A DNA stretch of 38,984 nucleotides from NCBI GenBank assembly GCA_949440065.1, contig CASRZP010000002.1:1-38984 (forward strand), read 5' to 3'. A model generated the notes under the pieces. That model was not told the origin of the DNA and ran no database searches. It saw only the letters and a program-made list of their open reading frames with translations. This document shows positions 6,841-30,934 of the stretch, one piece after another. Each line of letters begins with the position of its first letter. Within the stretch, counting starts at the first letter, position 1. The stretch comes from an uncultured Bacilli bacterium. GTDB lineage: Bacteria; Bacillota_I; Bacilli_A; RF39; UBA660. The position numbers were made by a program, and so were the translations under genes.

Positions 6841-7058
6841 AACAACAAAGCAGAAGTTGAGGAGTATGATTATTTCTTTTACTAGAGAGTCCATGGTTGG
6901 TGGAAATGGATGAAAGAGTAATTTGAAGGTAGCAACGGAGTGGTTTATTGAAATTCTTAGTAGATAAACACGTTTTCTCGCGTTAAGAGGGTAAAGATAC
7001 AAACTAAGGTGGTACCACGAATTTTGTTTCGTCCTTATGATTTGTGTCTTTTTATTTC
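6841..7058 (+). promoter_or_regulatory. T-box riboswitch leader; candidate specifier GUA (Val) at 6929-6931
   Basis: AGTA (5' S-turn), AGAGAG bay, GGTGGAA distal loop, specifier-loop GAAGGTAG at 6925-6932, and T-box sequence AGGTGGTACCACGA at 7007-7020. Terminator helix AAAGATACAAA (6994-7004) pairs with TTTGTGTCTTT (7041-7051), followed by a T-run. Confidence 0.85.
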
Positions 7059-7080
7059 AAAAAGAAAGGATTTGGTATAT

Positions 7081-9504
7081 ATGTTAGATAAAAAATATAA
7101 TGCAATAGAAAAAGAAGCAAAGTGGTTAAATTATTGGAAGGAAAATAAAATATATCAATTTAAGCCTGATCATCGTGAGGTGTTTTCGATTGATACGCCA
7201 CCTCCAACGGTAAATGGAAAAATTCATATAGGACATATTTTTTCCTATTCCCAAACAGAGATGATAGCAAGATACAAAAGACTATCAGGATATAATATTT
7301 TCTATCCCTTTGGTTTTGATGATAATGGCTTGCCAAGTGAACGATTAGTTGAAAAAGAACAAGGAAAAAGAGCACATGAGATAGGAAGAGAAGCTTTTTC
7401 TAAGTTGTGTTATGAAACAACCGATAAGTATGAAAAAGAATTTGAAGAGCTATTTAGTAAAATGGGAGTTAGTACCGATTGGGATATTCATTATAAAACC
7501 GTTAGCCCATCTACGATTAAAATTAGTCAAACCTCCTTTTTAGAGCTAGCAGAAAAAGGACATTGCTATCATAAAGAAAGTCCTGCTCTATGGTGTAATG
7601 AGTGTTTAACATCGATTGCACAAGCCGAGTTAGAAACAAAAACGATCAAAACAACGTTTAATTATGTTCACTTTAAAACCGTTGAAGATAACGAAGAGTT
7701 TACGATTGCTACAACACGTCCAGAGTTATTACCAGCGATTGTGTGTGTGTTTGTTAACCCAGATGATGATAAGCATAACCATTTAATTGGAAAACACGCC
7801 CATATTCCAGTTGTTGATGTTATAGTTCCTATTATGGGTGATGAAAAAGTTGCCATTGATAAAGGAACAGGTGTAGTTATGTGCTGTACCTTTGGAGATC
7901 AAACCGATATTGAATGGTGGAAGAAGTATAATTTGCCATTAAAATATATTTTTACAGAGCAAGGAAGAATTATTGATTCTGTTCCTAACTACGGTGGATT
8001 AAAGATTAAAGAAGCACGAGCAAAAATTATTGAAGACTTAACCAATGGTGGATTTGTTGAAAAAATTGAAGAGTTAGAACATGAAGTACAAACCCATGAG
8101 CGATGTGGAAGAGAAGTAGAATATGCTGTGATGAAACAATGGTTTATTGATATCATGAATCATAAAGACGACTTCTTAAAAATAGGAAACGAGATTAAGT
8201 GGCATCCAGAGTATATGAAAGCTCGTTATGATGAATGGGTAAATAATATTGCGTGGGATTGGTGTATTTCAAGACAACGTTACTTTGGTGTACCTTTTCC
8301 TGTATGGTATTGTAAGTCCTGTGGTGAACCAATTTTCGCGAAAATAGAAGATTTACCTGTTAACCCTTTAGTAGATAAGCCTCCTGTTACTAAATGTTCC
8401 TGTGGTTGTAGTGAGTTCATCGGTGAAACGGATGTTATGGATACTTGGGCAACATCATCGATTACGCCATTAATTAATATGCGATATAAGGAAAAAGATA
8501 ATTTTGAACAGTACTTAAAGCCAATGAGTTTAAGAACAAACGCTAGTGAAATTATTCGTACTTGGGATTTTTATACGATTGTTAAGAGTTTTTATCACTT
8601 TAATGAACGACCTTGGGATAATGTGATGATTTCAGGATTTGTTATGGCAAGTAAGGGTGAAAAAATTAGTAAAAGTAAGGGAAACAGTAAAGTGGAACCT
8701 CTTGCGTTAATCGAACAATATTCAGCTGATGTGATTCGCTACTGGGCAGCATCTGGTAGATTAGGTACAGATATTGTTTATAGTGAAGAAACCCTTTTAC
8801 GTGGACGAAAACTAGTCAATAAAATCTTTAATGTAGCGAAGTTCATTGAAATGCACTTAGAAGACTATCAAGATAAGGAAGTTGAACACTATGAATATCT
8901 TGATCGATGGATTATGGGAAAATATCAAGAAATGGAAGAAGGATTCTTAAAATATTTAGAAGATTATGAAATTGGGCTAGCTTTAAATCATTTAGAAAAG
9001 TTCTTCTGGAATTTCTGTGATAATTATATTGAAATTGTTAAACATCGCCTGTATCGACCAGAGGAGTTTGGAAATAGTGCAAGATACTCTGGACAAAAGA
9101 CAGTCTACACCCTTTTATATAAATTGCTACAAGACTTTAGTATTTTCTTTCCCTTTATTACTGAGGAGATTTACCAAGAGATATATCACCATGAAAAGTC
9201 AATTCACTTAACCACCATTACTCCGTTAACTTTTGATTTTAAAAAGGAAGTAGTAAATGGGGATATTATTGTCGATATCATTAGCCAAGCACGTGGTGAG
9301 AAGACTAACCATAATGTGTCATTAAAAACACCAATTGAATTAATGGAGTTAAGTGTAACCAGTGATGTAGCTAAGGCAATAAATGCATCCATCAAAGACT
9401 TTAGTGCAACTTTATTTATCAAAGATTTAAAAGTTGGTGTTGTTGATGATTTAATAAAAATAGAAAATATTGTCCTAGAATTAGAAGATAAGGAAGAAAA
9501 ATAG
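7081..9504 (+). CDS. valS: Class I aminoacyl-tRNA synthetase, most likely short (archaeal-type) valine--tRNA ligase
   Basis: IDTPPPTVNGKIHIGH (HIGH motif), KISKSKGN (KMSKS motif), WCISRQRYFGVPFPVW, and Zn-knuckle CxxC motifs. ATG 7081 lies after AAGAAAGGA and downstream of the T-box terminator, while the track's start at 7009 lies inside the leader. Valine is assigned from the N-terminal pattern plus the GUA specifier reading. Confidence 0.65.
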   Translation: MLDKKYNAIEKEAKWLNYWKENKIYQFKPDHREVFSIDTPPPTVNGKIHIGHIFSYSQTEMIARYKRLSGYNIFYPFGFDDNGLPSERLVEKEQGKRAHEIGREAFSKLCYETTDKYEKEFEELFSKMGVSTDWDIHYKTVSPSTIKISQTSFLELAEKGHCYHKESPALWCNECLTSIAQAELETKTIKTTFNYVHFKTVEDNEEFTIATTRPELLPAIVCVFVNPDDDKHNHLIGKHAHIPVVDVIVPIMGDEKVAIDKGTGVVMCCTFGDQTDIEWWKKYNLPLKYIFTEQGRIIDSVPNYGGLKIKEARAKIIEDLTNGGFVEKIEELEHEVQTHERCGREVEYAVMKQWFIDIMNHKDDFLKIGNEIKWHPEYMKARYDEWVNNIAWDWCISRQRYFGVPFPVWYCKSCGEPIFAKIEDLPVNPLVDKPPVTKCSCGCSEFIGETDVMDTWATSSITPLINMRYKEKDNFEQYLKPMSLRTNASEIIRTWDFYTIVKSFYHFNERPWDNVMISGFVMASKGEKISKSKGNSKVEPLALIEQYSADVIRYWAASGRLGTDIVYSEETLLRGRKLVNKIFNVAKFIEMHLEDYQDKEVEHYEYLDRWIMGKYQEMEEGFLKYLEDYEIGLALNHLEKFFWNFCDNYIEIVKHRLYRPEEFGNSARYSGQKTVYTLLYKLLQDFSIFFPFITEEIYQEIYHHEKSIHLTTITPLTFDFKKEVVNGDIIVDIISQARGEKTNHNVSLKTPIELMELSVTSDVAKAINASIKDFSATLFIKDLKVGVVDDLIKIENIVLELEDKEEK

Positions 9505-20912: not shown

Positions 20913-20954
20913 AAAAAATAAATGGTGTATAATCAATTTGTTAATTGATTATCT

Positions 20955-21031
20955 GTCCCCGTAGCTCAGTTGGATAGAGCAATCCCCTTCTAAGGGATCG
21001 GTCAAGCGTTCGAATCGCTTCGGAGACACCA
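20955..21031 (+). tRNA. tRNA-Arg (anticodon UCU)
   Basis: Cloverleaf: acceptor GTCCCCG/CGGAGAC (one C-A mismatch at 4:69), D-arm GCTC-AGTTGGATA-GAGC, anticodon arm ATCCC-CTTCTAA-GGGAT, T-arm AAGCG-TTCGAAT-CGCTT, discriminator A, encoded CCA. Confidence 0.95.
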
Positions 21032-21040
21032 TATGAATTT

Positions 21041-21066
21041 AAGCCTTATATTATAAGGCTTTTTTC
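21041..21066 (+). terminator. Rho-independent terminator after tRNA-Arg
   Basis: AAGCCTTAT-attat-AAGGCTT hairpin followed by TTTTT. Confidence 0.8.
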
Positions 21067-21114
21067 GTGCTCTAATCTTTTTATGCCTCATACATTCATC
21101 ATGATATGGATAAA

Positions 21115-21208
21115 CTAATAACCAATTAATTTTTCGTTATTTGCTAATTTATTGATGACAATTTTTAAATGATTTATATTTTTATTTTGTAGTAGTTATC
21201 TCTTTACA
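21115..21208 (-). pseudogene. Eroded RelE/YafQ-type toxin remnant downstream of the relB-like antitoxin
   Basis: Minus-strand fragments read CKEITTTK* (cf. the Y.I..T..F.KD toxin N-terminus) and INHLKIVINKLANNEKLIGY* (cf. L..VI..L.....L....DH.L.G). They lie in different frames with multiple stops. Confidence 0.35.
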
Positions 21209-21209
21209 A

Positions 21210-21500
21210 TCAATCTTTATTTAAATCCTTAAATAGTTCTTCAACGTTATTATAGGTTTTTGTTTTTATTTTATCACTTATCATTTTATCAGCTTCAGCC
21301 AAGGCTTTGTTTAATTTCCTACTAGGTTTTGGTTCTGATATTTCAAAAGGAATGCTAGCAGTCTTTACACTTTTCACCAAAAACATATTGATAGCAGTGG
21401 TCATATTTAAGCCTAAATCTTTAAATAGCATATCGGCTTCTTGTTTTAAAGTGGAATCAACACGAATATTTAGATTTGTAGTATTTGATATATTATTCAT
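21210..21500 (-). CDS. RelB/DinJ-family type II antitoxin
   Basis: NLNIRVDSTLKQEADMLFKDLGLNMTTAINMFLVKSVKTASIPFEIS matches the DinJ/RelB ribbon-helix-helix pattern. RBS GGAGAG. Confidence 0.8.
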   Translation of the reverse strand: MNNISNTTNLNIRVDSTLKQEADMLFKDLGLNMTTAINMFLVKSVKTASIPFEISEPKPSRKLNKALAEADKMISDKIKTKTYNNVEELFKDLNKD

Positions 21501-21654
21501 CTAATTCTCTCCATTTCTATATCAATAGTAACATATTATCTTAATTATGCCAACAAATAGTCATTACGTTGTCATTATAAATGTTTTTTAGAAATTATAA
21601 CTTTCTATTACATTATCCTTTATTGATGAAAAGAGGACTTCTTATAGATTTATC

Positions 21655-21682
21655 TAAAAAAGCACTAGTCTAGTGCTTTTCA
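21655..21682 (-). terminator. Terminator for the minus-strand lipoprotein / PemK-like / small-gene operon
   Basis: AGCACTA-gtc-TAGTGCT hairpin flanked by A6 on the plus strand, which is a T-run on the minus strand. Confidence 0.7.
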
Positions 21683-21844
21683 TAATGTTTTTTGTTTTTT
21701 TGAACAAACAATCTTTCCTTTTTCTTTAACTTCTTCGGTCCAATTTATAGGAATTACATCTTTTAAGACCTCTTTGTTAGTAGTAGTAGGTCTTTTTTTA
21801 GTGAAAAATCCTTTTGGAAAACCAATTTTCTTTCTATTTTCCAT
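21680..21844 (-). CDS. Small basic hypothetical protein (54 aa)
   Basis: A strong RBS GTAAGGAGGT precedes the internal ATG (MENRKKIGFPKGFF...). The longer start in the track has no RBS. Confidence 0.5.
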   Translation of the reverse strand: MENRKKIGFPKGFFTKKRPTTTNKEVLKDVIPINWTEEVKEKGKIVCSKKQKTL

Positions 21845-21952
21845 ATGAGACCTCCTTACTATAATAGTATACACAAACAAAGTGATTAATATCAATCAAA
21901 ATGTTCATATATTATAATCTTTCTTTATTAAATTGTCAATCTTTTTAATTCG

Positions 21953-22360
21953 TTACAAATTTTCTGTAACTATTGTGATCTTATCTTTATCAGATAAATA
22001 AAGTATCAATTTCATTAATTCATCAAGAAGTTCATCGGATATTCTCCCAAAAACATAATAATCTAATTTATTTTTATTGAAATAGAATAGTTTATCAGCT
22101 TTAGCGTATGATGGCTTTTTTAATTTTCTAGTACCGTTTTTCTCAAATTCAGTTATTTCCATATTTTCTTTATGAGATAATTTTTGTCTTTTTTGTTCTT
22201 CACTTTTGAAACTAGAAATAACAGTAGTTACATGAGTATATTCTAAACCTTTAATACAATTTGGGTTATCATCTATGACTATAAAAGAGTGAGTACCAAT
22301 TTCTTTTCCATCGTCACCTATATATTTATTTACTACAATAATATCTCCTAATTTACACAT
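21953..22360 (-). CDS. Hypothetical protein whose N-terminus resembles PemK/MazF-type SH3-like barrels
   Basis: MCKLGDIIVVNKYIGDDGKEIGTHSFIVIDDN resembles the GDI..V......G.E..G.RP.VV. pattern, with H.F replacing RP. RBS AGGAGTAAGG. The family assignment is tentative. Confidence 0.3.
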   Translation of the reverse strand: MCKLGDIIVVNKYIGDDGKEIGTHSFIVIDDNPNCIKGLEYTHVTTVISSFKSEEQKRQKLSHKENMEITEFEKNGTRKLKKPSYAKADKLFYFNKNKLDYYVFGRISDELLDELMKLILYLSDKDKITIVTENL

Positions 22361-22380
22361 AGCCTTACTCCTTGTTCGCG

Positions 22381-22902
22381 TTATTTACAAGTATATCCAT
22401 TTGTACTGTTATACATTTCTTTAAATTCATCAAGTGTAAGGTCTTTTTTAATATTGGTAATTAGTTGAGATGATTCGTCGCCACTATCTTCACTTGCGTT
22501 TAATTTTTTTGATATCTCTTCTAAAGCATTATAATCAAGTTTTTCATAATTTACCTCAAAAACAGTCTTAATAGAATTATCACCAACTTTTTCATAAGTG
22601 ACCATCATACCACCGATATTTTCAAAACTTTTCATGATTAATGAACCAATACCATAAACAAAATCAATATATTCTGCATCCATTTTTTGAAGTTGTTCTT
22701 GTTTTATGGTAAGTAGTTTATCATTTTTGTAAGTAGCCGTAATTGTATTGTCCGTTGTGTATCCATCTTCATCTGTTTCTGTTTTACTACAAATCATTTT
22801 CCCTGTATTGTCATTTTTCCCTCTTTGGTTAGTATTATTACCACATCCTGTTATAGATAGTAGTAATAAAGTTACTAAGCATAAAAGTCCTAATTTTTTC
22901 AT
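22381..22902 (-). CDS. Lipoprotein, possibly YehR/DUF1307-like
   Basis: Start at MKKLGLLCLVTLLLLSITG-C (lipobox) with RBS GAAAGAGGTG. TITATYKNDKLLT and VNYEKLDYNAL resemble DUF1307 lipoproteins. Confidence 0.5.
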   Translation of the reverse strand: MKKLGLLCLVTLLLLSITGCGNNTNQRGKNDNTGKMICSKTETDEDGYTTDNTITATYKNDKLLTIKQEQLQKMDAEYIDFVYGIGSLIMKSFENIGGMMVTYEKVGDNSIKTVFEVNYEKLDYNALEEISKKLNASEDSGDESSQLITNIKKDLTLDEFKEMYNSTNGYTCK

Positions 22903-23127
22903 TTTTAAACACCTCTTTCTATTGAAAAAATCTATATTAAAAGTCATATTAACTTTTAACCAAAAATAATTTTTGTTTCTAATAAAATTATATCCTAACT
23001 TAGAAATTTGTGTCAAATTATTTTATAGATAAGGTTTTTGATGATAAATAAATAGATATGGAAAAAATTGGAAAAAGAAAAAAGTCTAAATCAATAGACT
23101 TTTCTATTTAGTTAACTTATAATAAGT

Positions 23128-23577
23128 TTATTGAATATGCTTCTTGGCGCTATCACAACATAGCCAGTTAATGGATAAATTGTAATGCTTTGCTAATTTG
23201 CATAATTTATCTAAAGGTATTTGGGTATAACCATATTCGTAGTAAGCGTATGCTGATTGATTGGTTCCAATTACCTTTGCCATTTCTTTTTGTGTTAGCT
23301 TCTTTTCCTTTCTAAATTCTTTTAGACGCTTTCCTAAAAATTCTAACGTCACAGTTTCATGAGCAGGCATTTTCGATTTATTGTTCGTTAGATTTAATAG
23401 GTAATCAATGTTTGTTTTGAAGTGTTGTGCGAAGAGGTCTAACTTTAAGATAGGAAAGTTAATATCTCCTAACTCCCACATTGCGTATGTTGAACGTTTT
23501 ACCTCTAAAATGGTAGCAACATCGTTTTGGGTCATGTCAAAATCTTCGCGTAAATTTCTTATCCTTTCATATTTCAT
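23128..23577 (-). CDS. Transcriptional regulator with two tandem XRE-family HTH domains
   Basis: IRNLREDFDMTQNDVATILEVKRSTYAMWELG and LKEFRKEKKLTQKEMAKVIGTNQSAYAYYEYG are two Cro/C1-type HTH motifs. Transcribed divergently from the bacteriocin exporter. Confidence 0.85.
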   Translation of the reverse strand: MKYERIRNLREDFDMTQNDVATILEVKRSTYAMWELGDINFPILKLDLFAQHFKTNIDYLLNLTNNKSKMPAHETVTLEFLGKRLKEFRKEKKLTQKEMAKVIGTNQSAYAYYEYGYTQIPLDKLCKLAKHYNLSINWLCCDSAKKHIQ

Positions 23578-23753
23578 CTTATCACCCAATTTTATTTTAG
23601 TACATGACTTATGTAAGTTTTATAATTTGTCAAGTGATACGATTAATATGTGCAAATTTTTGAATTTTATGTAAAAAATTCGTATTTTTTTTTTACTTTT
23701 TTAGTAATTTTAAATTTACTTTCCAATGATGATATTGGGAGGTGAAAAGATGT

Positions 23754-25850
23754 GTGGCACATCTAGAATTTATTTCACAACTAGATAAAAAAGATTGTGG
23801 AATCACTTGTTTGTTAATGATTTTAAAATATTACGGTGGAGAAGCAAGTAGAGAGTATTTACGTTTACTCGCTCATCAAGATCAGTATGGTGTCAATGCT
23901 TTTTATTTAATTGATGCGGCAAATCATCTCGGTTTAGAAGGAAAAGGCATAACAGGTCCCTTAGAAGAAATGCCTTGTTCCTTTCTTCCTTGTATTGCTC
24001 ATGTTCATTTGAATGGATATGAACACTTTGTTGTTATTGAAAAAATTAACCATAAGAGTCAATATGTATATATTGTTGACCCTGCTAGAGGAAAACTAAA
24101 ATATAGTTTTAAGGAGTATCAAAAAATTTCAACTAATCAATATTTATGCTTTCGTCCAAAGGTAGCAAAACTGCCTGTGTTAAAAGAAGAAAAAAGGTTC
24201 TCACGTTTTTGTTTAAACTTTTTTGCTAGACAGTGGTATTTGATATTAGTAATTTTGTTTTGCATACTCCTAGCGTTTCTTTTAGAATTAATAGTAACGT
24301 ATCATTTTCAATGGATATTAGATTATGGTATAGCGTATCAAAAGAAAGCACTTCTTAGTTTTTTTCTTACCTTTGTCATTTTATTGATTATTTTTATTCG
24401 TGTCATTTACTTAATGAAAGAATATTTTATGAATCATCTTTTACAAAAATTTCAGCTTTTTATTAGTGAAAAGGTGATACACCACATCTTACACCTTCCC
24501 TTTCAATACCAACAGTATCATACAGCAGGAGAACTCATTTCTAAGTTTTCTTTTCTAGAGGATGTTCTTTATATTTGGTATCCTATAATGAATGGGATAA
24601 GTAGTAGTATTATTTTAGTTATCTTACTTATTTTATTAGGAAGAATACATCATTACTTTTTTTCTATTTTTCTTTTATTTATGATAGTTCAATTATTTAC
24701 AACAAAACTAGAAATTCCTATAGTTAGTAAGATGTTAAAAAAAACGAAGATGGAATTAACCTTATTAAATTCTAAGTTAACCGAATGTTTCTATGGATTG
24801 GGAACCATTAAGAATATGCATATAGAAGAAGATACCTTTGAAAAGTTAGATGTTTACTTAGGAAATTATTTAACCAAGGCAAAAAAGTTAAAAATGCGAC
24901 TAAAATTAATAGAAGAAGAAAAAAGTTTTATTCGTTTATTCATGGAACATTTGCTATTAACATTTGGAGGGTTTTTGCTACTACAACAAAAAATTACTTT
25001 ATCGCATTGGTTAATGGTATCTTTTTTATCCCGTCTAGCTATTAGTCAATGTGAGGTTCTATTGGATTTTCCTTCAAGGTGGGAAAATAGTAAAACTTCT
25101 TTTCAACAGTTAAATGACCTTCTTTCTATAGAAATAGAAGATTTTACTTTTGGTCTATCTACACTTCCTCTTTGTTTAAAAGGAAAAATACAATTGAACA
25201 AGTTTTCATTTTTCATTAGGAAAGATAAAGGATTATTTTATGATGTATCGTTAACTATCGATGAAGGAGATCGTATTGCTTTATTAGGATCATCAGGAAG
25301 TGGGAAGAGTACTTTATTAAAAATATTGATGCGTTATTATGAAGTTGCTCATCAAATGATTTATTTAGATAATCGTGATATTTTATCATATCCATTAGAA
25401 ATGATTAGAGAAAATATTTGTTATGTATCACAAGATGAAATGCTTTTTTCAGATACGGTATATCAAAATATTATGTTAAATCAAAAAATAGATTATGATG
25501 AATTTTTAATGATATGTAAAATTACTGAGGTAGATAGCATTGTATCTAGTAGTTTATTAGGATATCAATATAAAATAGAAGAAAATGGAATCAATCTATC
25601 TGGGGGAGAAAGACAAAGAATTATTTTAGCAAGAGCACTAGCGAAGAAGTCATGTATATATTTATTTGATGAATCTTTTAATCAATTAGATATTCATAGA
25701 GAAAGGAGAATCATGAAAGCGATTTTTAATTATTTAGAAGGAAAAACTATATTTGTTGTGTCGCACCGAAAAAACAACTTGGACCTATTTACACGAAGAT
25801 TGGTGTTAGATGATAAAAATATTATAGATGATTACTTATATTTCCATTGA
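23754..25850 (+). CDS. Bacteriocin ABC exporter with an N-terminal C39 peptidase domain (double-glycine leader processing)
   Basis: C39 motifs QLDKKDCGITCLLMILKYYGG and YEHFVVIEKI. TM domain present. Walker A GSSGSGKST, signature LSGGERQR, Walker B IYLFDES. GTG 23754 sits 9 nt after GGGAGGTG. Confidence 0.9.
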   Translation: MAHLEFISQLDKKDCGITCLLMILKYYGGEASREYLRLLAHQDQYGVNAFYLIDAANHLGLEGKGITGPLEEMPCSFLPCIAHVHLNGYEHFVVIEKINHKSQYVYIVDPARGKLKYSFKEYQKISTNQYLCFRPKVAKLPVLKEEKRFSRFCLNFFARQWYLILVILFCILLAFLLELIVTYHFQWILDYGIAYQKKALLSFFLTFVILLIIFIRVIYLMKEYFMNHLLQKFQLFISEKVIHHILHLPFQYQQYHTAGELISKFSFLEDVLYIWYPIMNGISSSIILVILLILLGRIHHYFFSIFLLFMIVQLFTTKLEIPIVSKMLKKTKMELTLLNSKLTECFYGLGTIKNMHIEEDTFEKLDVYLGNYLTKAKKLKMRLKLIEEEKSFIRLFMEHLLLTFGGFLLLQQKITLSHWLMVSFLSRLAISQCEVLLDFPSRWENSKTSFQQLNDLLSIEIEDFTFGLSTLPLCLKGKIQLNKFSFFIRKDKGLFYDVSLTIDEGDRIALLGSSGSGKSTLLKILMRYYEVAHQMIYLDNRDILSYPLEMIRENICYVSQDEMLFSDTVYQNIMLNQKIDYDEFLMICKITEVDSIVSSSLLGYQYKIEENGINLSGGERQRIILARALAKKSCIYLFDESFNQLDIHRERRIMKAIFNYLEGKTIFVVSHRKNNLDLFTRRLVLDDKNIIDDYLYFH

Positions 25851-26247
25851 TACTTGGAAAAAAAGAATAGAAAATCGTTTTTTCCTTCATTTCATTTCTC
25901 TCATGGTGTTATTGCTCATTCTTCTTGGTTTATTATTTTACTATTTAATGACGAAAGAGGTTTTGTTAACGAAATCAATTTCTGTTACTTCACTAGAGTC
26001 AGGATATTATCAGCTTCATGTTGATAATTTGGAATTAGCAAAATTAATGAATCAAGTTACTTTGTTAGATAAAGGGCAAGAAATTTCTTATCGCATTTTA
26101 AACGTTGTATTAACAGATGATAAAGAAAAACCACAGCAAGTAACAATATCTACTGTAAAAAAAATAGGAAATCAAACGGAAATGGTATTGATAAGAAAAA
26201 AATTATTGATGGTATTGATTGATAGTATAAAAGGAGGAACAACATGA
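25828..26247 (+). CDS. Short (139 aa) single-TM protein resembling the N-terminus of ComB/LcnD-type bacteriocin secretion accessory proteins
   Basis: Overlaps the ABC gene end by 23 nt and the first bacteriocin gene start (ATGA). W..R..NRFF.HFISLMVLLLILLGLLFYYLMTKEVLL resembles the accessory-protein N-terminal anchor, but the large periplasmic domain is missing. Confidence 0.5.
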   Translation: MITYISIDTWKKRIENRFFLHFISLMVLLLILLGLLFYYLMTKEVLLTKSISVTSLESGYYQLHVDNLELAKLMNQVTLLDKGQEISYRILNVVLTDDKEKPQQVTISTVKKIGNQTEMVLIRKKLLMVLIDSIKGGTT

Positions 26248-26387
26248 AATCTCTTAATCAAGAATCACTAAAAAATATGAAAGGAGGATTTTCTATATGG
26301 GCTGGAGTTGGCATTGGTGCTTTAATCATCTTCTTATCAGGAGTAGTTGATGGCATTGTGCATCCTAAGGCTTGTACAGAAAAATAA
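26244..26387 (+). CDS. Class II bacteriocin precursor with a double-glycine leader (peptide A); absent from the ORF track
   Basis: RBS AAAGGAGGAA 6 nt upstream. Translation is MKSLNQESLKNMKGG / FSIWAGVGIGALIIFLSGVVDGIVHPKACTEK. The leader has hydrophobic residues at -4, -7 and -12 and GG at -2/-1. The mature peptide is hydrophobic with GxxxG-type motifs. Confidence 0.8.
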   Translation: MKSLNQESLKNMKGGFSIWAGVGIGALIIFLSGVVDGIVHPKACTEK

Positions 26388-26392
26388 ACAAG

Positions 26393-26563
26393 ATGAAAAA
26401 ATTAAATGAAGAAGAATTACTTACGATAACAGGAGGAGCCAGCGTAACAGGATCTATTGTTAATGCAGTGTGCTCTATCTTTAAATTTATTTATGACGTA
26501 GGAAGGGATTTAGGTTCTTGTATACGTCGAATTGAAAAATCTTCTCTTTGTCCTTTAGAATAA
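26393..26563 (+). CDS. Class II bacteriocin precursor with a double-glycine leader (peptide B)
   Basis: MKKLNEEELLTITGG / ASVTGSIVNAVCSIFKFIYDVGRDLGSCIRRIEKSSLCPLE. This is a canonical leader with L-12, E-8, L-7, I-4 and GG. The mature peptide is 41 aa with 3 Cys. The track's start at 26372 is probably too early. Confidence 0.8.
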   Translation: MKKLNEEELLTITGGASVTGSIVNAVCSIFKFIYDVGRDLGSCIRRIEKSSLCPLE

Positions 26564-26613
26564 GACACATTTTTTAAAGGTTTGCATTTACTATCAATAA
26601 GGAGGTATTATCG

Positions 26614-26919
26614 TTGGAAGAGGAGTTAATGTTAGAAATTATTGCTAGTGAGCTAGGTTTACCTGTTTATAATAAGTGGATGGAACAGTTAACAAAGGAC
26701 GCACTTTTCTATGATGATTTATATCAAAAAACATTTAAGTTACCAAAAGAAGAACAACTAAAAATGATGAAAAAGGCTATAGCTAGAGTAGAGAAAAATT
26801 CAAGAATTTATCAAAATGCGTTAGAAAAAATGGAAACTTGGATAGAGTATTCTTATTTAGCAAGTTATGAAGACCCTTTGGCAACAATTGCTAGAAAAAA
26901 AGAAAAAATGAAAAAATAA
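26614..26919 (+). CDS. Soluble helical ~100-aa protein, candidate bacteriocin immunity protein
   Basis: TTG 26614 sits 8 nt after AGGAGG. No TM segment, predicted helical and K/E-rich. Its position right after the bacteriocin genes and its size match the four-helix-bundle immunity proteins of class II loci. Confidence 0.4.
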   Translation: MEEELMLEIIASELGLPVYNKWMEQLTKDALFYDDLYQKTFKLPKEEQLKMMKKAIARVEKNSRIYQNALEKMETWIEYSYLASYEDPLATIARKKEKMKK

Positions 26920-26940
26920 GTGGGAAATAAACGATTTTTG

Positions 26941-26969
26941 TTGAAAATACTTGGTGATTATGTTATAAT
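26941..26969 (+). promoter_or_regulatory. Sigma-A promoter of rpsU
   Basis: TTGAAA (26941-26946), 17-nt spacer, TATAAT (26964-26969), with TG at -15/-14. Confidence 0.75.
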
Positions 26970-27001
26970 CTATTTTAGGAAAAGCGAAGGGAGGGATTAG
27001 A

Positions 27002-27205
27002 ATGACACAAGTAACTGTTCGTAACGGGAATTTAGATATGGCGTTAAGAAAATTGAAACAAAAAGTGAATAAGGATGGACTCCCTTCTGAGTGCAGAAAA
27101 AGAGAATGTTATGATAAACCAGGTGTACGTAGAAGAAATGCAAAAAAAGAAGGCATAAAAAATGCTCGCAAAAGAAACAAAAACAATCGTAGAAAAGAAG
27201 ATTAA
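27002..27205 (+). CDS. rpsU: 30S ribosomal protein S21
   Basis: V.V.....L..ALR.LK......G.....RKRE.Y.KPGVRRR pattern, basic tail, 67 aa, RBS GGGAGGGA. Confidence 0.9.
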   Translation: MTQVTVRNGNLDMALRKLKQKVNKDGLPSECRKRECYDKPGVRRRNAKKEGIKNARKRNKNNRRKED

Positions 27206-27294
27206 TCATTAAGAAAAAGCGCAAGTAAACCTTGTGTTTTTTCTTGCTTAGCGATTTATCGTGTGCTATACTATAGAGCAAGAAGGTGAAAGAA

Positions 27295-27738
27295 ATGAAT
27301 TTAGTAGAAAAAATATCAAGTGATATGGTTAGTGCGATGAAAAGTCAAGATAAGGAACGTCTTACTGTTCTTAGAATGATAAAAGCAGCAATGCAGATGG
27401 AACATATTGATAAAAAAAGAGAACTTAATGATGAATTGGTCATTGATGTGGTTAATAAACAAGTAAAGATGCGCCAAGATTCCATTATTGAATTTGAAAA
27501 AGGAAATCGTAGTGATTTAATTGAAAAAACTGAAGGAGAGTTAGCCATATTAAAAGATTATCTTCCTACACCATTAGAGGAAAATGAAGTATTAGCCATT
27601 ATTGATGAAGCCTTTAACCTAGTTAAACCAGTAGATAGTAAAGATATGGGAAAAATCATGAAGGAAGTTACCCCTAAATTAAAAGGTAGAACGGATATGG
27701 GAAAGGTTAGTCAAATCATTAAAGAAAAATTAAGCTAA
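27295..27738 (+). CDS. yqeY: GatB/YqeY-domain protein
   Basis: MNLVEKISSDMVSAMKSQDKERLTVLRMIKAAMQ...LSD..E...V.K.VK.R.DSI.EF....R.DL...E..E..ILK.YLP is the typical YqeY pattern. Synteny with rpsU. ATG 27295 follows GAAGGTGA. Confidence 0.9.
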   Translation: MNLVEKISSDMVSAMKSQDKERLTVLRMIKAAMQMEHIDKKRELNDELVIDVVNKQVKMRQDSIIEFEKGNRSDLIEKTEGELAILKDYLPTPLEENEVLAIIDEAFNLVKPVDSKDMGKIMKEVTPKLKGRTDMGKVSQIIKEKLS

Positions 27739-27833: not shown

Positions 27834-28271
27834 ATGAAAAGAAAAATATTTTATGGGGTCATCTTTATTTTAGGAATAGCTTTAATGGTAGCAAGAGAAT
27901 ATGAAAGAAACAATTTTAATCATTTAAAACTTGCAGATGATACGATATCTATGGAAATAAAAGAAGGAACGTTAACGAATAAGGGTGCTACGGTGATAAT
28001 CACGGATAAGTCTAAAAAAAAGAATATTTATGATGGAGGTTTTTTGATTTATAAAAAAGGAATAGGTAGATGGCTGGCATTACCTTCTAAAGAACAATGG
28101 GTTAACGCCATAGGTTATCGTACAGACGAAAATGGTAAATTAGAATTTGATTGTAATTGGGAATGGTGGTATGGAAAATTAAAAAAAGGGACATATCGCT
28201 TAGTCAAAAGTGTTATTATAGCTGAAGAATGGACAGAAAAAAATGTTTATGTAGAATTTGAAATAAAATAA
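27834..28271 (+). CDS. Small TM-anchored/exported beta-rich protein, paralog 1 of 3
   Basis: N-terminal hydrophobic segment. The core MEIKEGTLTNKGATVIITDKS...IYKK..G.W.....K..WV...GY..DENGKLE..C.......LKKGTYRL.K........KNVYVEFEIK is shared with 28506 and 29162. Promoter TTGATA-17-TATATT upstream. Confidence 0.7.
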   Translation: MKRKIFYGVIFILGIALMVAREYERNNFNHLKLADDTISMEIKEGTLTNKGATVIITDKSKKKNIYDGGFLIYKKGIGRWLALPSKEQWVNAIGYRTDENGKLEFDCNWEWWYGKLKKGTYRLVKSVIIAEEWTEKNVYVEFEIK

Positions 28272-28293
28272 AGTATCTTATATTTTATCATTA

Positions 28294-28321
28294 CTAAAGA
28301 AAATAATCTTTAGTTTTTTTA
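28294..28321 (+). terminator. Rho-independent terminator
   Basis: CTAAAGA-aaataa-TCTTTAG hairpin followed by T7. Confidence 0.75.
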
Positions 28322-28505
28322 TGTCATTTACATCAATTTTGAATTTTACGATTTTTTTCATCAAAATCATTGATAAAAGTCAAGTATTATGATATATTAA
28401 TCTTAAGTTAACTATCTTTGAAAACAACATGAAAATAAGGCTTTACAGTAATGTGTGTGACCTACTGATAATTCCCAAGTAAAAAGGAAAGAAAGGAGAC
28501 TTAAA

Positions 28506-28928
28506 ATGAAAAAAATGATTAGAATATTGTTTTTGGTTATTTTAGTATTTGCTGTATTATATGGTGTTTTAGTAATAAAGAGTAATCAAAAATTTGATAA
28601 AGTAGATAATACTTCGATGGAAATTAAAGAAGGTACTTTGACTAGTACTAGTGCTACAATTATTATTACGGATACATCATTAGAGAAATATGAATATGAT
28701 AATGTATTCATGATTTATAAAAAAAAGTTTGGCATATGGACCGCGGTTACAGAAAAAGTAAAATGGGTGAGTTCACCAGGTTATTATGTAGATGCTAATG
28801 GTAAGTTAGAAATGGAATGTGATTTTCACAAAAAAAAGTTAGATAAGGGTTTGTATAGATTGTCAAAATGGGGTTATTTAGCAGACGGAACAGCTAAAAA
28901 TGTTTATGTAGAATTTGAAATAAAATAA
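28506..28928 (+). CDS. Small TM-anchored/exported beta-rich protein, paralog 2
   Basis: RBS AAAGGAGA. Residues about 10-105 are identical to paralog 3. The C-terminal ~35 aa diverge (DFHKKKLDKG...GYLADGTAKNV versus NFPKQKLGKG...AYLKDGTVKNI). Confidence 0.75.
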   Translation: MKKMIRILFLVILVFAVLYGVLVIKSNQKFDKVDNTSMEIKEGTLTSTSATIIITDTSLEKYEYDNVFMIYKKKFGIWTAVTEKVKWVSSPGYYVDANGKLEMECDFHKKKLDKGLYRLSKWGYLADGTAKNVYVEFEIK

Positions 28929-28950
28929 AGTATCTTATATTTTATCATTG

Positions 28951-28977
28951 CTAAAGAAAATAATCTTTAGTTTTTTT
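28951..28977 (+). terminator. Rho-independent terminator
   Basis: CTAAAGA-aaataa-TCTTTAG hairpin followed by T7. Confidence 0.75.
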
Positions 28978-29161
28978 ATGTCATTTACGTCAATTTTAAA
29001 TTTTACGATTTTTTTCGTCAAAATAATTGATGATAGTCAAATATTATGATATATTAATTTTAAGTTAACCATCTAAAAAAACAACATAAAAATAAGGCTT
29101 TACAGTAATGTGTATGACCTACTGATAATTCCCAAGTGAAAGGGAAAAAAGGAGACTTAAA

Positions 29162-29584
29162 ATGAAAAAAAATATTAAAATATTATTTTTGGTTATTTTA
29201 GTATTTGCTGTATTATATGGTGTTTTAGTAATAAAGAGTAATCAAAAATTTGATAAAGTAGATAATACTTCGATGGAAATTAAAGAAGGTACTTTGACTA
29301 GTACTAGTGCTACAATTATTATTACGGATACATCATTAGAGAAATATGAATATGATAATGTATTCATGATTTATAAAAAAAAGTTTGGCATATGGACCGC
29401 GGTTACAGAAAAAGTAAAATGGGTAAGTTCACCAGGTTATTATGTAGATGCTAATGGTAAGTTAGAAATGGAATGCAACTTTCCTAAACAAAAATTGGGT
29501 AAGGGGTTGTATAGGTTATCAAAATGGGCGTATTTAAAAGATGGAACAGTTAAAAATATTTATGTAGAATTTGAAATCAAGTAA
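29162..29584 (+). CDS. Small TM-anchored/exported beta-rich protein, paralog 3
   Basis: See paralog 2. RBS AAAGGAGA. Confidence 0.75.
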   Translation: MKKNIKILFLVILVFAVLYGVLVIKSNQKFDKVDNTSMEIKEGTLTSTSATIIITDTSLEKYEYDNVFMIYKKKFGIWTAVTEKVKWVSSPGYYVDANGKLEMECNFPKQKLGKGLYRLSKWAYLKDGTVKNIYVEFEIK

Positions 29585-29692: not shown

Positions 29693-30934
29693 ATGAAAAA
29701 AGTTATTAGCTTAGTGTTACTTTTTACTATTTTTCTCACTAATTTTACTGTTTTACCGGTAAATGCTGATACTAATGAAAGTAATACTAATGAAGTAAAA
29801 GTACTAGAAGATTTAATGAAAGATGAGAAGTTTAAAGAAACTTATGAAAATCACATGATAGAGCAATATGGAGAAAACTATCAAGCAAAATTACAAAAGA
29901 ATGATCTAGCTGTGAGAAATGCTGGCATCATTGAATCGCGTTTTAACAAGGATTCATCAGGAAAAAGGGTTTATCCTAGTTACATAGGTGGTTTGTATAT
30001 TGATGATGATGATAACTTGGTTATTCAAATTGTAGATAGCAATATTCCTGAAATTAAAAGTGAAAGCTATAAAAGTTATGAAAAAGTATTTACCGTAGAT
30101 GAGAACGCCAAAATAGAGTATGTTACTTATTCTTATGACGAATTGACAAAGTTACGCGATTACCTTTTGGATAATTATTTAGGAAAAATTGATAATTTTT
30201 CGGGCTTATATATTGATGAAAAATTAAATAAAGTAGTTGTTGAATTAATGGATTTATCTGATAAAAAAATAAAGGAATTTCAAGATAATGTATTATCATC
30301 TTCAATGATTACTTTTGATAAAGGAAAAACTTTTGTTAATGCACAAAATATCAACCCAGGCAATGGTTTTAAAACGCCAAGTGGTGGTGGATGTTCCTTT
30401 GGTTATAGAGCTAAAAATAGATATGACACAATAGGAATTGTTACTGCTGGACATTGTTTTTCATCAAGTGGTCAAAATGTTTCAGGTGTTGGATATGTAA
30501 GTAATTATTCTAATGATGGAATATTGGATGCAGCATTTATAACAACTGATTCAGGTGTTACACCAACAAATTTGATAGTAAATCCGCTTTTAGGTATGAC
30601 TACTTTAGGTACTACAGTAGAATACCCATTAAAAAAAGGGCAAGAAGTTATTAAGTATGGTGCAAGGACAGGTTTTTCTTCAAGTAGTATTAAAGAAGTT
30701 GACTATTCCTATACAGTTGGAGGAACAACTTATCGTAATTTAATTTTAACGGAGTTGTATGCTCTTGATGGGGATAGTGGTGGTATTGTATATCATCCAT
30801 CTAGTAATGAGAATACAACGGTAGGAATAATCAAAGCTATATTGATAAATAAAGATACAGAGGAATTTTTAGGGGAAACGGTAGTTGCCAAAGCACTTCT
30901 AATTAATAGTACATTTGGTTTATCTAGATATTAA
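29693..30934 (+). CDS. Secreted S1-family (chymotrypsin-fold, streptogrisin/alpha-lytic-like) serine protease with an N-terminal propeptide
   Basis: Signal peptide MKKVISLVLLFTIFLTNFTVLPVNA. Catalytic triad contexts are TAGHCF (His), LDAAFI (Asp) and GDSGG (Ser). The ~200-aa pro-region precedes the catalytic domain. Confidence 0.8.
   Translation: MKKVISLVLLFTIFLTNFTVLPVNADTNESNTNEVKVLEDLMKDEKFKETYENHMIEQYGENYQAKLQKNDLAVRNAGIIESRFNKDSSGKRVYPSYIGGLYIDDDDNLVIQIVDSNIPEIKSESYKSYEKVFTVDENAKIEYVTYSYDELTKLRDYLLDNYLGKIDNFSGLYIDEKLNKVVVELMDLSDKKIKEFQDNVLSSSMITFDKGKTFVNAQNINPGNGFKTPSGGGCSFGYRAKNRYDTIGIVTAGHCFSSSGQNVSGVGYVSNYSNDGILDAAFITTDSGVTPTNLIVNPLLGMTTLGTTVEYPLKKGQEVIKYGARTGFSSSSIKEVDYSYTVGGTTYRNLILTELYALDGDSGGIVYHPSSNENTTVGIIKAILINKDTEEFLGETVVAKALLINSTFGLSRY

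Follow-up and report, generated by a model that had tools for sequence, protein, structure and literature searches.

The two-peptide (class IIb) bacteriocins, among them lactococcin G, plantaricin EF and JK, ABP-118 and the lactobin A/cerein 7B family, are encoded by operons in which two adjacent genes specify distinct precursors with 15-residue double-glycine leaders and GxxxG motifs, no modification enzyme is present, a small gene follows those for the peptides, and a peptidase-containing ATP-binding cassette (ABC) transporter (PCAT) is encoded in the same locus. A locus of this plan lies at positions 23128-26919, about 3.8 kb from its regulator to its last gene, of a 38,984-nt stretch of DNA (hereafter the window; contig CASRZP010000002.1) from an uncultured bacterium of the Bacilli. 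It agrees with the class IIb operons in each of these features and in the sizes of its mature peptides (32 and 41 residues). It differs from them in that its peptides are orphan and non-cationic, with an odd distribution of cysteines (one and three); in that it has neither a multi-transmembrane (multi-TM) or CAAX-type immunity protein nor an HlyD protein, both of which are present on the Bacillus cereus plasmid pb4, whose locus is one of the lactobin A/cerein 7B family; and in that a regulator of the XRE type, with two helix-turn-helix (HTH) domains, takes the place of the histidine kinase, response regulator and inducer peptide.

Because an intact PCAT and two open reading frames (ORFs) with double-glycine leaders occur here together with close operon packing, conserved synteny and purifying selection, and because neither a histidine kinase or response regulator nor a modification enzyme turned up among the window ORFs scanned, we consider it probable that the locus is a self-contained operon for an unmodified class II bacteriocin with double-glycine leaders, repressed by XRE, processed by the PCAT, and likely to be of the two-peptide kind. 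To judge from sequence comparison, the combination of PCAT and double-glycine peptides is complete, intact and selectively maintained. An earlier note on this DNA had listed the genes concerned as a divergent two-HTH XRE regulator, a C39-peptidase ABC exporter, a 139-aa single-TM protein (here p139), two peptides with double-glycine leaders (pepA and pepB) and a 101-aa soluble helical protein (p101). That description is borne out gene by gene: all of its ORFs are present where it placed them, except that the start codons of XRE, the ABC exporter and pepB have been refined, and gene-caller records of identical contigs give the same refined starts.

The exporter ORF (23742-25850, + strand) is likely to start at a GTG codon at 23754, 9 nt 3' of GGGAGGTG, to give a protein of 698 residues in which Pfam recognises Peptidase_C39 (PF03412, E=5.9e-27), ABC_membrane (PF00664) and ABC_tran (PF00005) domains. 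Over residues 7-692 it is collinear, at full length, with both PCAT1 (4RY2) and ComA (8HF4). The catalytic Cys (in SQLDKKDCG), His (EHFVVI) and Asp (VDPARG) align with those of PCAT1, the oxyanion Gln lies six residues before the Cys, and the translation contains the Walker A (GSSGSGKST), signature (LSGGERQR), Walker B (LFDES) and H-loop (SHR) motifs of the nucleotide-binding domain (NBD); in the same alignment the 7N87 chain has Ala at the position of the catalytic Cys. All these elements are as intact as in PCAT1 and ComA, and the exporter resembles PCAT1 also in having no HlyD-type partner. It differs from known PCATs in sharing only about 29-30% identity with the best PCATs of the plasmid collection and in scoring below the trusted cut-off of the NCBIfam model TIGR01193 (313.9 against 523.85 bits), and from PCAT1 and ComA in being followed by a translationally coupled and unique 139-aa single-TM protein. 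By these alignments the exporter is a PCAT of complete architecture, and its sequence is called divergent because of the TIGR01193 score. From its domains and catalytic residues, it would be expected to cleave after Gly-Gly and to export both peptides.

In the pepA precursor the boundary between leader and mature peptide falls between MKSLNQESLKNMKGG and FSIW, giving a 15-residue double-glycine leader and a mature peptide of 32 residues, FSIWAGVGIGALIIFLSGVVDGIVHPKACTEK (3.30 kDa, or 3299 Da; pI 6.7; net charge -0.2; grand average of hydropathicity 1.1; one Cys). Mature pepA is uniformly hydrophobic (Eisenberg hydrophobicity about 0.8, hydrophobic moment about 0.1) and resembles a TM helix. 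The earlier note had remarked on GxxxG-like motifs in this peptide; there are two of them (G6xxxG10 and G18xxxG22), and it can be added that pepB has one as well. A third variant of pepA occurs on a 707-bp contig from ENA, in which mature Gly22 is replaced by Cys, so that the second GxxxG is lost and the peptide has two Cys; the change could be genuine variation or an error of sequencing. The true start of pepB is taken to be the ATG at 26393 and not the TTG at 26372, because the sister lineage described below has no upstream in-frame start. The boundary here lies between MKKLNEEELLTITGG and ASVT, and the 15-residue double-glycine leader is followed by a mature peptide of 41 residues, ASVTGSIVNAVCSIFKFIYDVGRDLGSCIRRIEKSSLCPLE (4.45 kDa, or 4448 Da; net charge about +0.8; three Cys; one GxxxG, G22xxxG26), which forms a strongly amphipathic helix (hydrophobic moment 0.6-0.8).

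Both leaders follow the double-glycine pattern known as the Havarstein consensus, with L-12, E-8 (E-9 in pepA), L-7, a hydrophobic residue at -4 (I-4 in pepB) and the terminal GG. When a regular expression for such leaders was run over all six frames of the 38,984-bp window, pepA and pepB were the sole matches, against a chance mean of 0.12 in 100 first-order Markov simulations, none of which gave two matches. Neither mature peptide has a relative in the PDB, and no match to either sequence was found in the literature searched. A search of 5.8 billion clusters, in which the peptides were compared as 90%-identity clusters, recovered for pepA, pepB and p101 only their own cluster and one from the sister lineage. 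The mature peptides are accordingly new as far as these searches reach, and not a described bacteriocin, as had been suspected when no bacteriocin could be named for them.

The genes are closely packed. The start of p139 overlaps the stop codon of the exporter gene by 23 nt, and its own stop overlaps the start of pepA by 4 nt (ATGA); pepA is preceded by a strong ribosome-binding site (RBS), AAAGGAGGA; and pepB begins 5 nt past the pepA stop with no separate RBS of its own. The overlaps and the strong RBSs are of operon type. One TM-like and one amphipathic peptide, both with GxxxG and translationally coupled, form the class IIb pattern, and a two-peptide pairing is suggested by the adjacency and coupling of the genes, by the GxxxG motifs and by the complementary physico-chemistry of the products. 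It is conceivable instead that the peptides are no obligate pair, and represent either two one-peptide (class IId) bacteriocins or one antimicrobial peptide with an enhancer, decoy or inducer. The two sequences are dissimilar to each other, no class IIb family matches them above its cut-off, and the best NCBIfam match of pepB is to the EntF-type induction factor family (E=0.0015), mostly through the leader. PCATs encoded in the blp and pln loci, like those of many other PCAT loci, export several unrelated peptides. Against this, the 5-nt spacing without an RBS for pepB implies coupled and equimolar synthesis of the two peptides; GxxxG motifs are found in both, one being TM-like and the other amphipathic; the two genes have been kept together in both lineages; and no sensor kinase or peptide-binding receptor for an inducer is present among the window ORFs scanned. 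On balance we think independent peptides unlikely. The class IIb assignment made in the earlier note is favoured by the adjacency, coupling, motifs and complementarity of pepA and pepB, and their charge counts against it, as discussed below.

By exact-protein look-ups, at least 23 metagenomic contigs carry the locus, and these fall into two lineages. With the PCAT as query, a single related genome was recovered, a metagenome-assembled genome (MAG) of the sister lineage (lineage 2) labelled 'uncultured Tenericutes', with 80% amino acid identity and identical synteny, and in every contig the gene order is GerM, tRNA-Arg, (toxin-antitoxin-like genes), lipoprotein, XRE, PCAT, p139, pepA, pepB, p101, rpsU and yqeY. 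The ratio of non-synonymous to synonymous substitution rates (dN/dS) between the lineages is 0.04 for XRE, 0.12 for pepB, 0.14 for PCAT, 0.18 for the lipoprotein, 0.21 for p139, 0.22 for pepA and 0.38 for p101, values (0.04-0.38) that point to purifying selection on every gene of the locus and mark them as real and maintained genes, not chance ORFs. All four Cys and every GxxxG motif are invariant across the two lineages, and the mature peptides are more conserved than their leaders: mature pepA has 4 substitutions, of which three are Ile/Val swaps, and pepB has changed at 2 of 41 mature positions as against 4 of 15 in the leader. For p139, a search of 1.84 billion representatives at full HMMER sensitivity gave a single relative, again in the sister lineage. 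By these searches p139, pepA, pepB and p101 are ORFans, each with one sister-lineage relative; no homologues of the small proteins were found beyond the two lineages, and a profile with which to search more deeply could not be built.

The Pfam scans covered 33 window ORFs, among them all but one of the 36 that reach 90 residues, and nine of the scanned ORFs had no match at the thresholds used. No HisKA, HATPase sensor kinase, Response_reg or LytTR domain was found, the sole HATPase match being HSP90/HtpG, nor any LanB, LanC, LanM, Lan, radical-SAM, YcaO or other modification domain, with the proviso that modification enzymes might be encoded elsewhere in the genome. The claim that the locus is without a kinase, regulator and inducer trio and without a modification enzyme is thus upheld for these ORFs. 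The window otherwise encodes housekeeping and sporulation functions, comprising transketolase, a class-I aminoacyl-tRNA synthetase with a T-box, SirA, CotF, HSP20, HtpG, GerM, rpsU, YqeY, YqfD, YbeY, Era and RecO, and the host is an uncultured spore-forming gut-type Firmicute.

Protection of the producer might be provided by any of three proteins. The p139 protein is predicted to have its N-terminus inside and one N-terminal TM helix, with about 98 residues forming an extracellular domain; in its AlphaFold2 (AF2) model (mean predicted local distance difference test score, pLDDT, 61) only the TM helix is confident, and Foldseek gave no matching fold in the PDB. Comparator PCAT loci on plasmids (pCLI of Clostridium botulinum and pb4 of B. 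cereus) have, in this position, an HlyD adaptor of 437-476 residues whose gene overlaps the PCAT stop codon, and in pb4 a CAAX protease follows as an immunity-type gene. The idea that p139 is a shortened HlyD adaptor was rejected: it matches no HlyD model of Pfam or NCBIfam, BLASTP against two PCAT-partner HlyD proteins gave E>0.3, and only position and the N-in single-TM topology are held in common. By its membrane location p139 is a candidate accessory or immunity protein.

The p101 gene begins 50 nt past pepB, with AAGGAGG 7 nt ahead of its TTG start. Its product has no match in Pfam or NCBIfam and is modelled as six helices with no TM segment (pLDDT 81.5, predicted TM-score 0.67). A match to acyl carrier protein was dismissed as noise (E=2.5, TM-score 0.2, the serine of the DSL motif being absent), and neither an HMM nor a fold match was found to the cytosolic four-helix-bundle immunity proteins of classes IIa and IId (EntA_Immun type). 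By position p101 is a candidate immunity protein, an anti-repressor role being an alternative. A promoter-like sequence, TTGAAA-18-TAGAAT, lies at 26532-26561 inside the 3' end of pepB, a short way upstream of p101, and is kept in both lineages; it could permit p101 to be expressed apart from the operon, its conservation being confounded by coding constraint. The third protein is the lipoprotein encoded next to XRE in both lineages, which has weak family matches only (DUF1307, E=0.015) and its own promoter, TTGACA-18-TATAAT (23016 to 22987; 12 of 12 positions sigma-70-like), also kept in lineage 2. Immunity is conferred by lipoproteins in the case of LanI, and by this analogy the conserved neighbour is a candidate immunity or accessory factor that may or may not be part of the system.

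The start of XRE is likely to be the ATG at 23577, preceded by GGTGAT, although the ORF extends to a TTG at 23589; the resulting 149-residue protein contains two HTH_3 stretches, at about residues 5-60 and 85-143 (Pfam, E=1.9e-26), and no TPR/RRNPP, cupin or peptidase domain. An NCBIfam match to RstR (83.2 bits, cut-off 80) is an artefact produced by summing the two HTH matches. The nearest solved relative is the ImmR-type HTH of ICEBs1 (7T8I, E=2.3e-6). Like ImmR, and like CylR2 of the enterococcal cytolysin, small XRE/Cro-cI repressors that control a mobile-element and a bacteriocin locus respectively, XRE has an HTH_3-type domain, lies divergent to the operon it would control and lacks a ligand-binding domain; it differs from both in having two HTHs on one chain, and in the absence of any nearby CylR1-like membrane partner or ImmA-like protease. 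The earlier description of this regulatory arrangement as unusual was overstated, since XRE proteins of this size with two HTHs are found among phage-type regulators, and a regulator of Brevibacillus phage Abouo has the same architecture (32% identity over 91% of the length). In the literature on class II loci controlled by XRE proteins no close precedent was found.

XRE is 98% identical in amino acid sequence between the lineages, with a synonymous divergence (dS) of 0.22 as compared with about 0.8 in neighbouring genes. Together with some 85 bp upstream it forms a hyper-conserved block (23127-23660) with sharp edges, in which DNA identity is 96-98% and beyond which it falls to 75-85%; this could reflect either recent recombination of a regulator cassette or unusually strong constraint. 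Within the block is a 13-bp inverted repeat, TTnATCnTATCAC, giving two candidate operators: TTCATCTTATCAC (23573-23585, +) overlaps both the RBS and the start codon of XRE, and TTAATCGTATCAC (23634-23646, -) lies just downstream of the -10 element of the operon, as would be expected if a repressor controlled both itself and a divergent operon. That element is a perfect TATAAT at 23621-23626 on the + strand, facing the operon, and is accompanied by a -35 sequence matching at only 3 of 6 positions; the operon promoter is weakly assigned there by reading of the sequence. Because a terminator-like hairpin (-12.5 kcal/mol, z=-2.84), whose sequence is kept in lineage 2, lies downstream of XRE, the gene is probably monocistronic. 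From its conserved divergent adjacency and from the conserved block with its inverted repeats, XRE is presumed to be an autoregulated repressor of the operon. The earlier statement that the locus is governed by XRE is consistent with that adjacency and with the repeat-bearing block, the regulation itself being an extrapolation from both.

A number of observations weigh against the interpretation of the locus as an XRE-repressed two-peptide bacteriocin operon. Cationic peptides are usual for class IIb and for class II generally, and pepA is neutral to acidic (its net charge in lineage 2 is about -1.2) and pepB barely cationic; our confidence that these are bacteriocins is lowered because positive charge is lacking. 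All bacteriocin HMMs scored below their cut-offs (PF10439, 15 against 27 bits; TIGR03949, 14.8 and 17.2 against 21.5), and neither peptide qualifies as a member of TIGR03949, PF10439 or NF038034/5, though we count the weak sub-threshold matches of both peptides to the class IIb families TIGR03949 and PF10439 in favour. Pfam, NCBIfam and BLASTP comparisons found no HlyD-type accessory protein at the locus; there is no recognisable immunity protein there either, nor a multi-TM or CAAX-type protein; and Foldseek gave no significant match for the p101 model in BFVD or in the PDB, where the solved bacteriocin immunity proteins are deposited (none in the PDB at E<=0.001, the best being E=2.5). On the side of regulation, a sigma-70 consensus scan of 23590-23740 (+) passed no site for the operon. 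In the window the 13-mer recurs without mismatch only at the two candidate operators, in a count for which the pattern was derived from those same two sites, and short inverted repeats are common in such AT-rich DNA (5 in 211 nt). Finally, scanning of metagenome contigs with XRE gave only two full-length relatives (37-40% identity), neither of them beside a PCAT; the link of XRE to a PCAT is for that reason taken to be specific to this locus and not a trait of the family, and the scan gave no evidence of a wider family of XRE-PCAT loci.

This last result bears on a different explanation of the regulator, namely that XRE does not control the operon at all and is an independent phage-like or toxin-antitoxin-like repressor that merely happens to adjoin it, the segment being variable and having a tRNA gene at its flank. 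Its low dS and the sharply bounded block, so unlike the flanks, are what would be seen of a separately exchanged module, phage relatives share the dual-HTH architecture, and toxin-antitoxin-like genes (RelB) are close by. On the other hand the divergent adjacency of XRE and PCAT is retained in both lineages, even where the toxin-antitoxin-like genes have been lost; the conserved block runs on into the shared control region as far as the -10 and transcription start area of the operon, and takes in the second 13-mer; and XRE, which lacks a partner gene, is provided with a terminator of its own. We judge mere adjacency to have only a small chance of being correct, and continue to regard XRE as the presumed repressor of the operon.

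The lack of positive charge and of a recognisable immunity gene would also suit peptides that are not antimicrobial, either exported for signalling or development (as a pheromone, or in connection with sporulation) or small, membrane-anchored and directed at the producer. PCATs export pheromones too, ComC and BlpC among them, the exporter described here is a full-length match to ComA, and the host is a spore-former, with SirA, CotF, YqfD and GerM encoded in the window. But no cognate receptor was found, whether a kinase and response regulator pair or a TPR protein of RRNPP type, XRE consisting of just its two HTHs within 149 residues; mature peptides of 32 and 41 residues with TM-like GxxxG stretches are bigger and more hydrophobic than the known pheromones with double-glycine leaders; and the sub-threshold family matches are chiefly to class IIb bacteriocins. 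A role other than in antagonism strikes us as distinctly improbable.

On the bacteriocin interpretation, the system might operate as follows. XRE would bind the 13-bp sites in the 176-bp divergent region and repress both promoters. Upon derepression, a single transcript would be made carrying PCAT, p139, pepA, pepB and p101, from which translational coupling, through the 23-nt and 4-nt overlaps and the 5-nt gap, would yield pepA and pepB in roughly equimolar amounts. The C39 domain would recognise the amphipathic leaders and cut after Gly15 of each, and the ABC core would export the peptides of 32 and 41 residues. Outside the cell, the hydrophobic, GxxxG-rich pepA and the amphipathic, Cys-bearing pepB would most likely act jointly on the membranes of related bacteria in the manner of class IIb, and the producer would be protected by one or more of the candidates p101, p139 and the adjacent lipoprotein. 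Bolder versions can be imagined: the four invariant Cys (one in pepA and three in pepB) could form an intermolecular disulfide, so that the bacteriocin would be a covalently linked heterodimer; or p101, in place of an immunity function, would antagonise XRE to create a self-contained bistable switch replacing quorum sensing; or p139 would be a minimal new accessory or immunity protein for a PCAT. Undescribed features of this sort must be accounted a long shot.

Table 1. Features of the double-glycine peptide locus and its immediate surroundings (positions in the window)
Feature	Position	Strand	Basis or description
173-aa lipoprotein	22381..22902	-	signal peptide with lipobox ITGC
Terminator-like hairpin	23078..23105	-	11-bp stem then U-run, downstream of XRE
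Dual-HTH XRE/Cro-cI-type regulator, 149 aa	23128..23577	-	two HTH_3
Divergent control region, 176 bp	23578..23753	.	two-lineage alignment, inverted repeat
PCAT, 698 aa	23754..25850	+	C39 + 6-TM domain + NBD
p139, single-TM ORFan	25828..26247	+	ORF, overlaps, AF2
pepA precursor, 47 aa	26244..26387	+	double-glycine leader
pepB precursor, 56 aa	26393..26563	+	double-glycine leader
p101, soluble all-helical ORFan	26614..26919	+	AF2; last operon gene

The locus lies within a segment of about 6 kb bounded on one side by tRNA-Arg(TCT) (20955-21031) and on the other by rpsU. Homology between the lineages ends precisely at the 3' end of the tRNA gene, GC content is not deviant, and a search of 20940-27300 for an att-like repeat of the tRNA-Arg 3' end found none, nor was an integrase found; the segment is variable and chromosomal. 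Immediately 3' of the tRNA gene, positions 21032-22380 hold minus-strand genes, namely one for a RelB/DinJ-type antitoxin (21210-21500), a 54-aa ORF and a 135-aa ORF without a family match, which in lineage 2 have shrunk to RelB remnants. At the other end, a JGI contig of 1.3 kb joins the window sequence at position 26711, midway through p101, and from there through rpsU and yqeY the two agree at 99.8% identity. The first 96 nt of the contig match nothing in the sequences compared, so that it represents either a strain in which the locus has been deleted or replaced, or an assembly chimera.

Further away, three tandem paralogues with Big_14 (bacterial Ig-like) domains occupy 27834-29584, the last two being about 92% identical. 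Another contig of the same lineage has only two, which makes this a tandem-duplication polymorphism of about 650 bp; lineage 2 has one copy. Between these genes and yabP/yqfD, and confined to the lineage of the window, is a gene (29693-30934) for a 413-aa secreted protein with GDSGG serine-protease-like and GHC motifs and no Pfam match. Ahead of the class-I aminoacyl-tRNA synthetase ORF (7009-9504) is a T-box leader (6844-7039, 119.5 bits), which the listed GTG start of that ORF overlaps; the true start is probably further downstream.

Systems of this kind are already familiar, and it is the peptides and accessory proteins that are orphan. The points that set the locus apart are the non-cationic peptides with their one and three Cys, a mini-protein in the slot taken by HlyD in other PCAT operons, a soluble protein, its fold unmatched, where an immunity protein would be expected, and the presumed dual-HTH repressor. 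The concept of a class II bacteriocin is unchanged by it, and its worth is that of a clean lead from genome mining with no conceptual surprise, in the form of a very small gene set that is easily synthesised and tried. If the peptides proved active, an uncultured, spore-forming lineage of low GC content (that of the MAG labelled 'Tenericutes') would have yielded unmodified bacteriocins of a new sequence family; and, if the interpretation is true, a PCAT would here be paired with a 139-aa partner and not with an HlyD adaptor, and control by a plain repressor would replace peptide quorum sensing.

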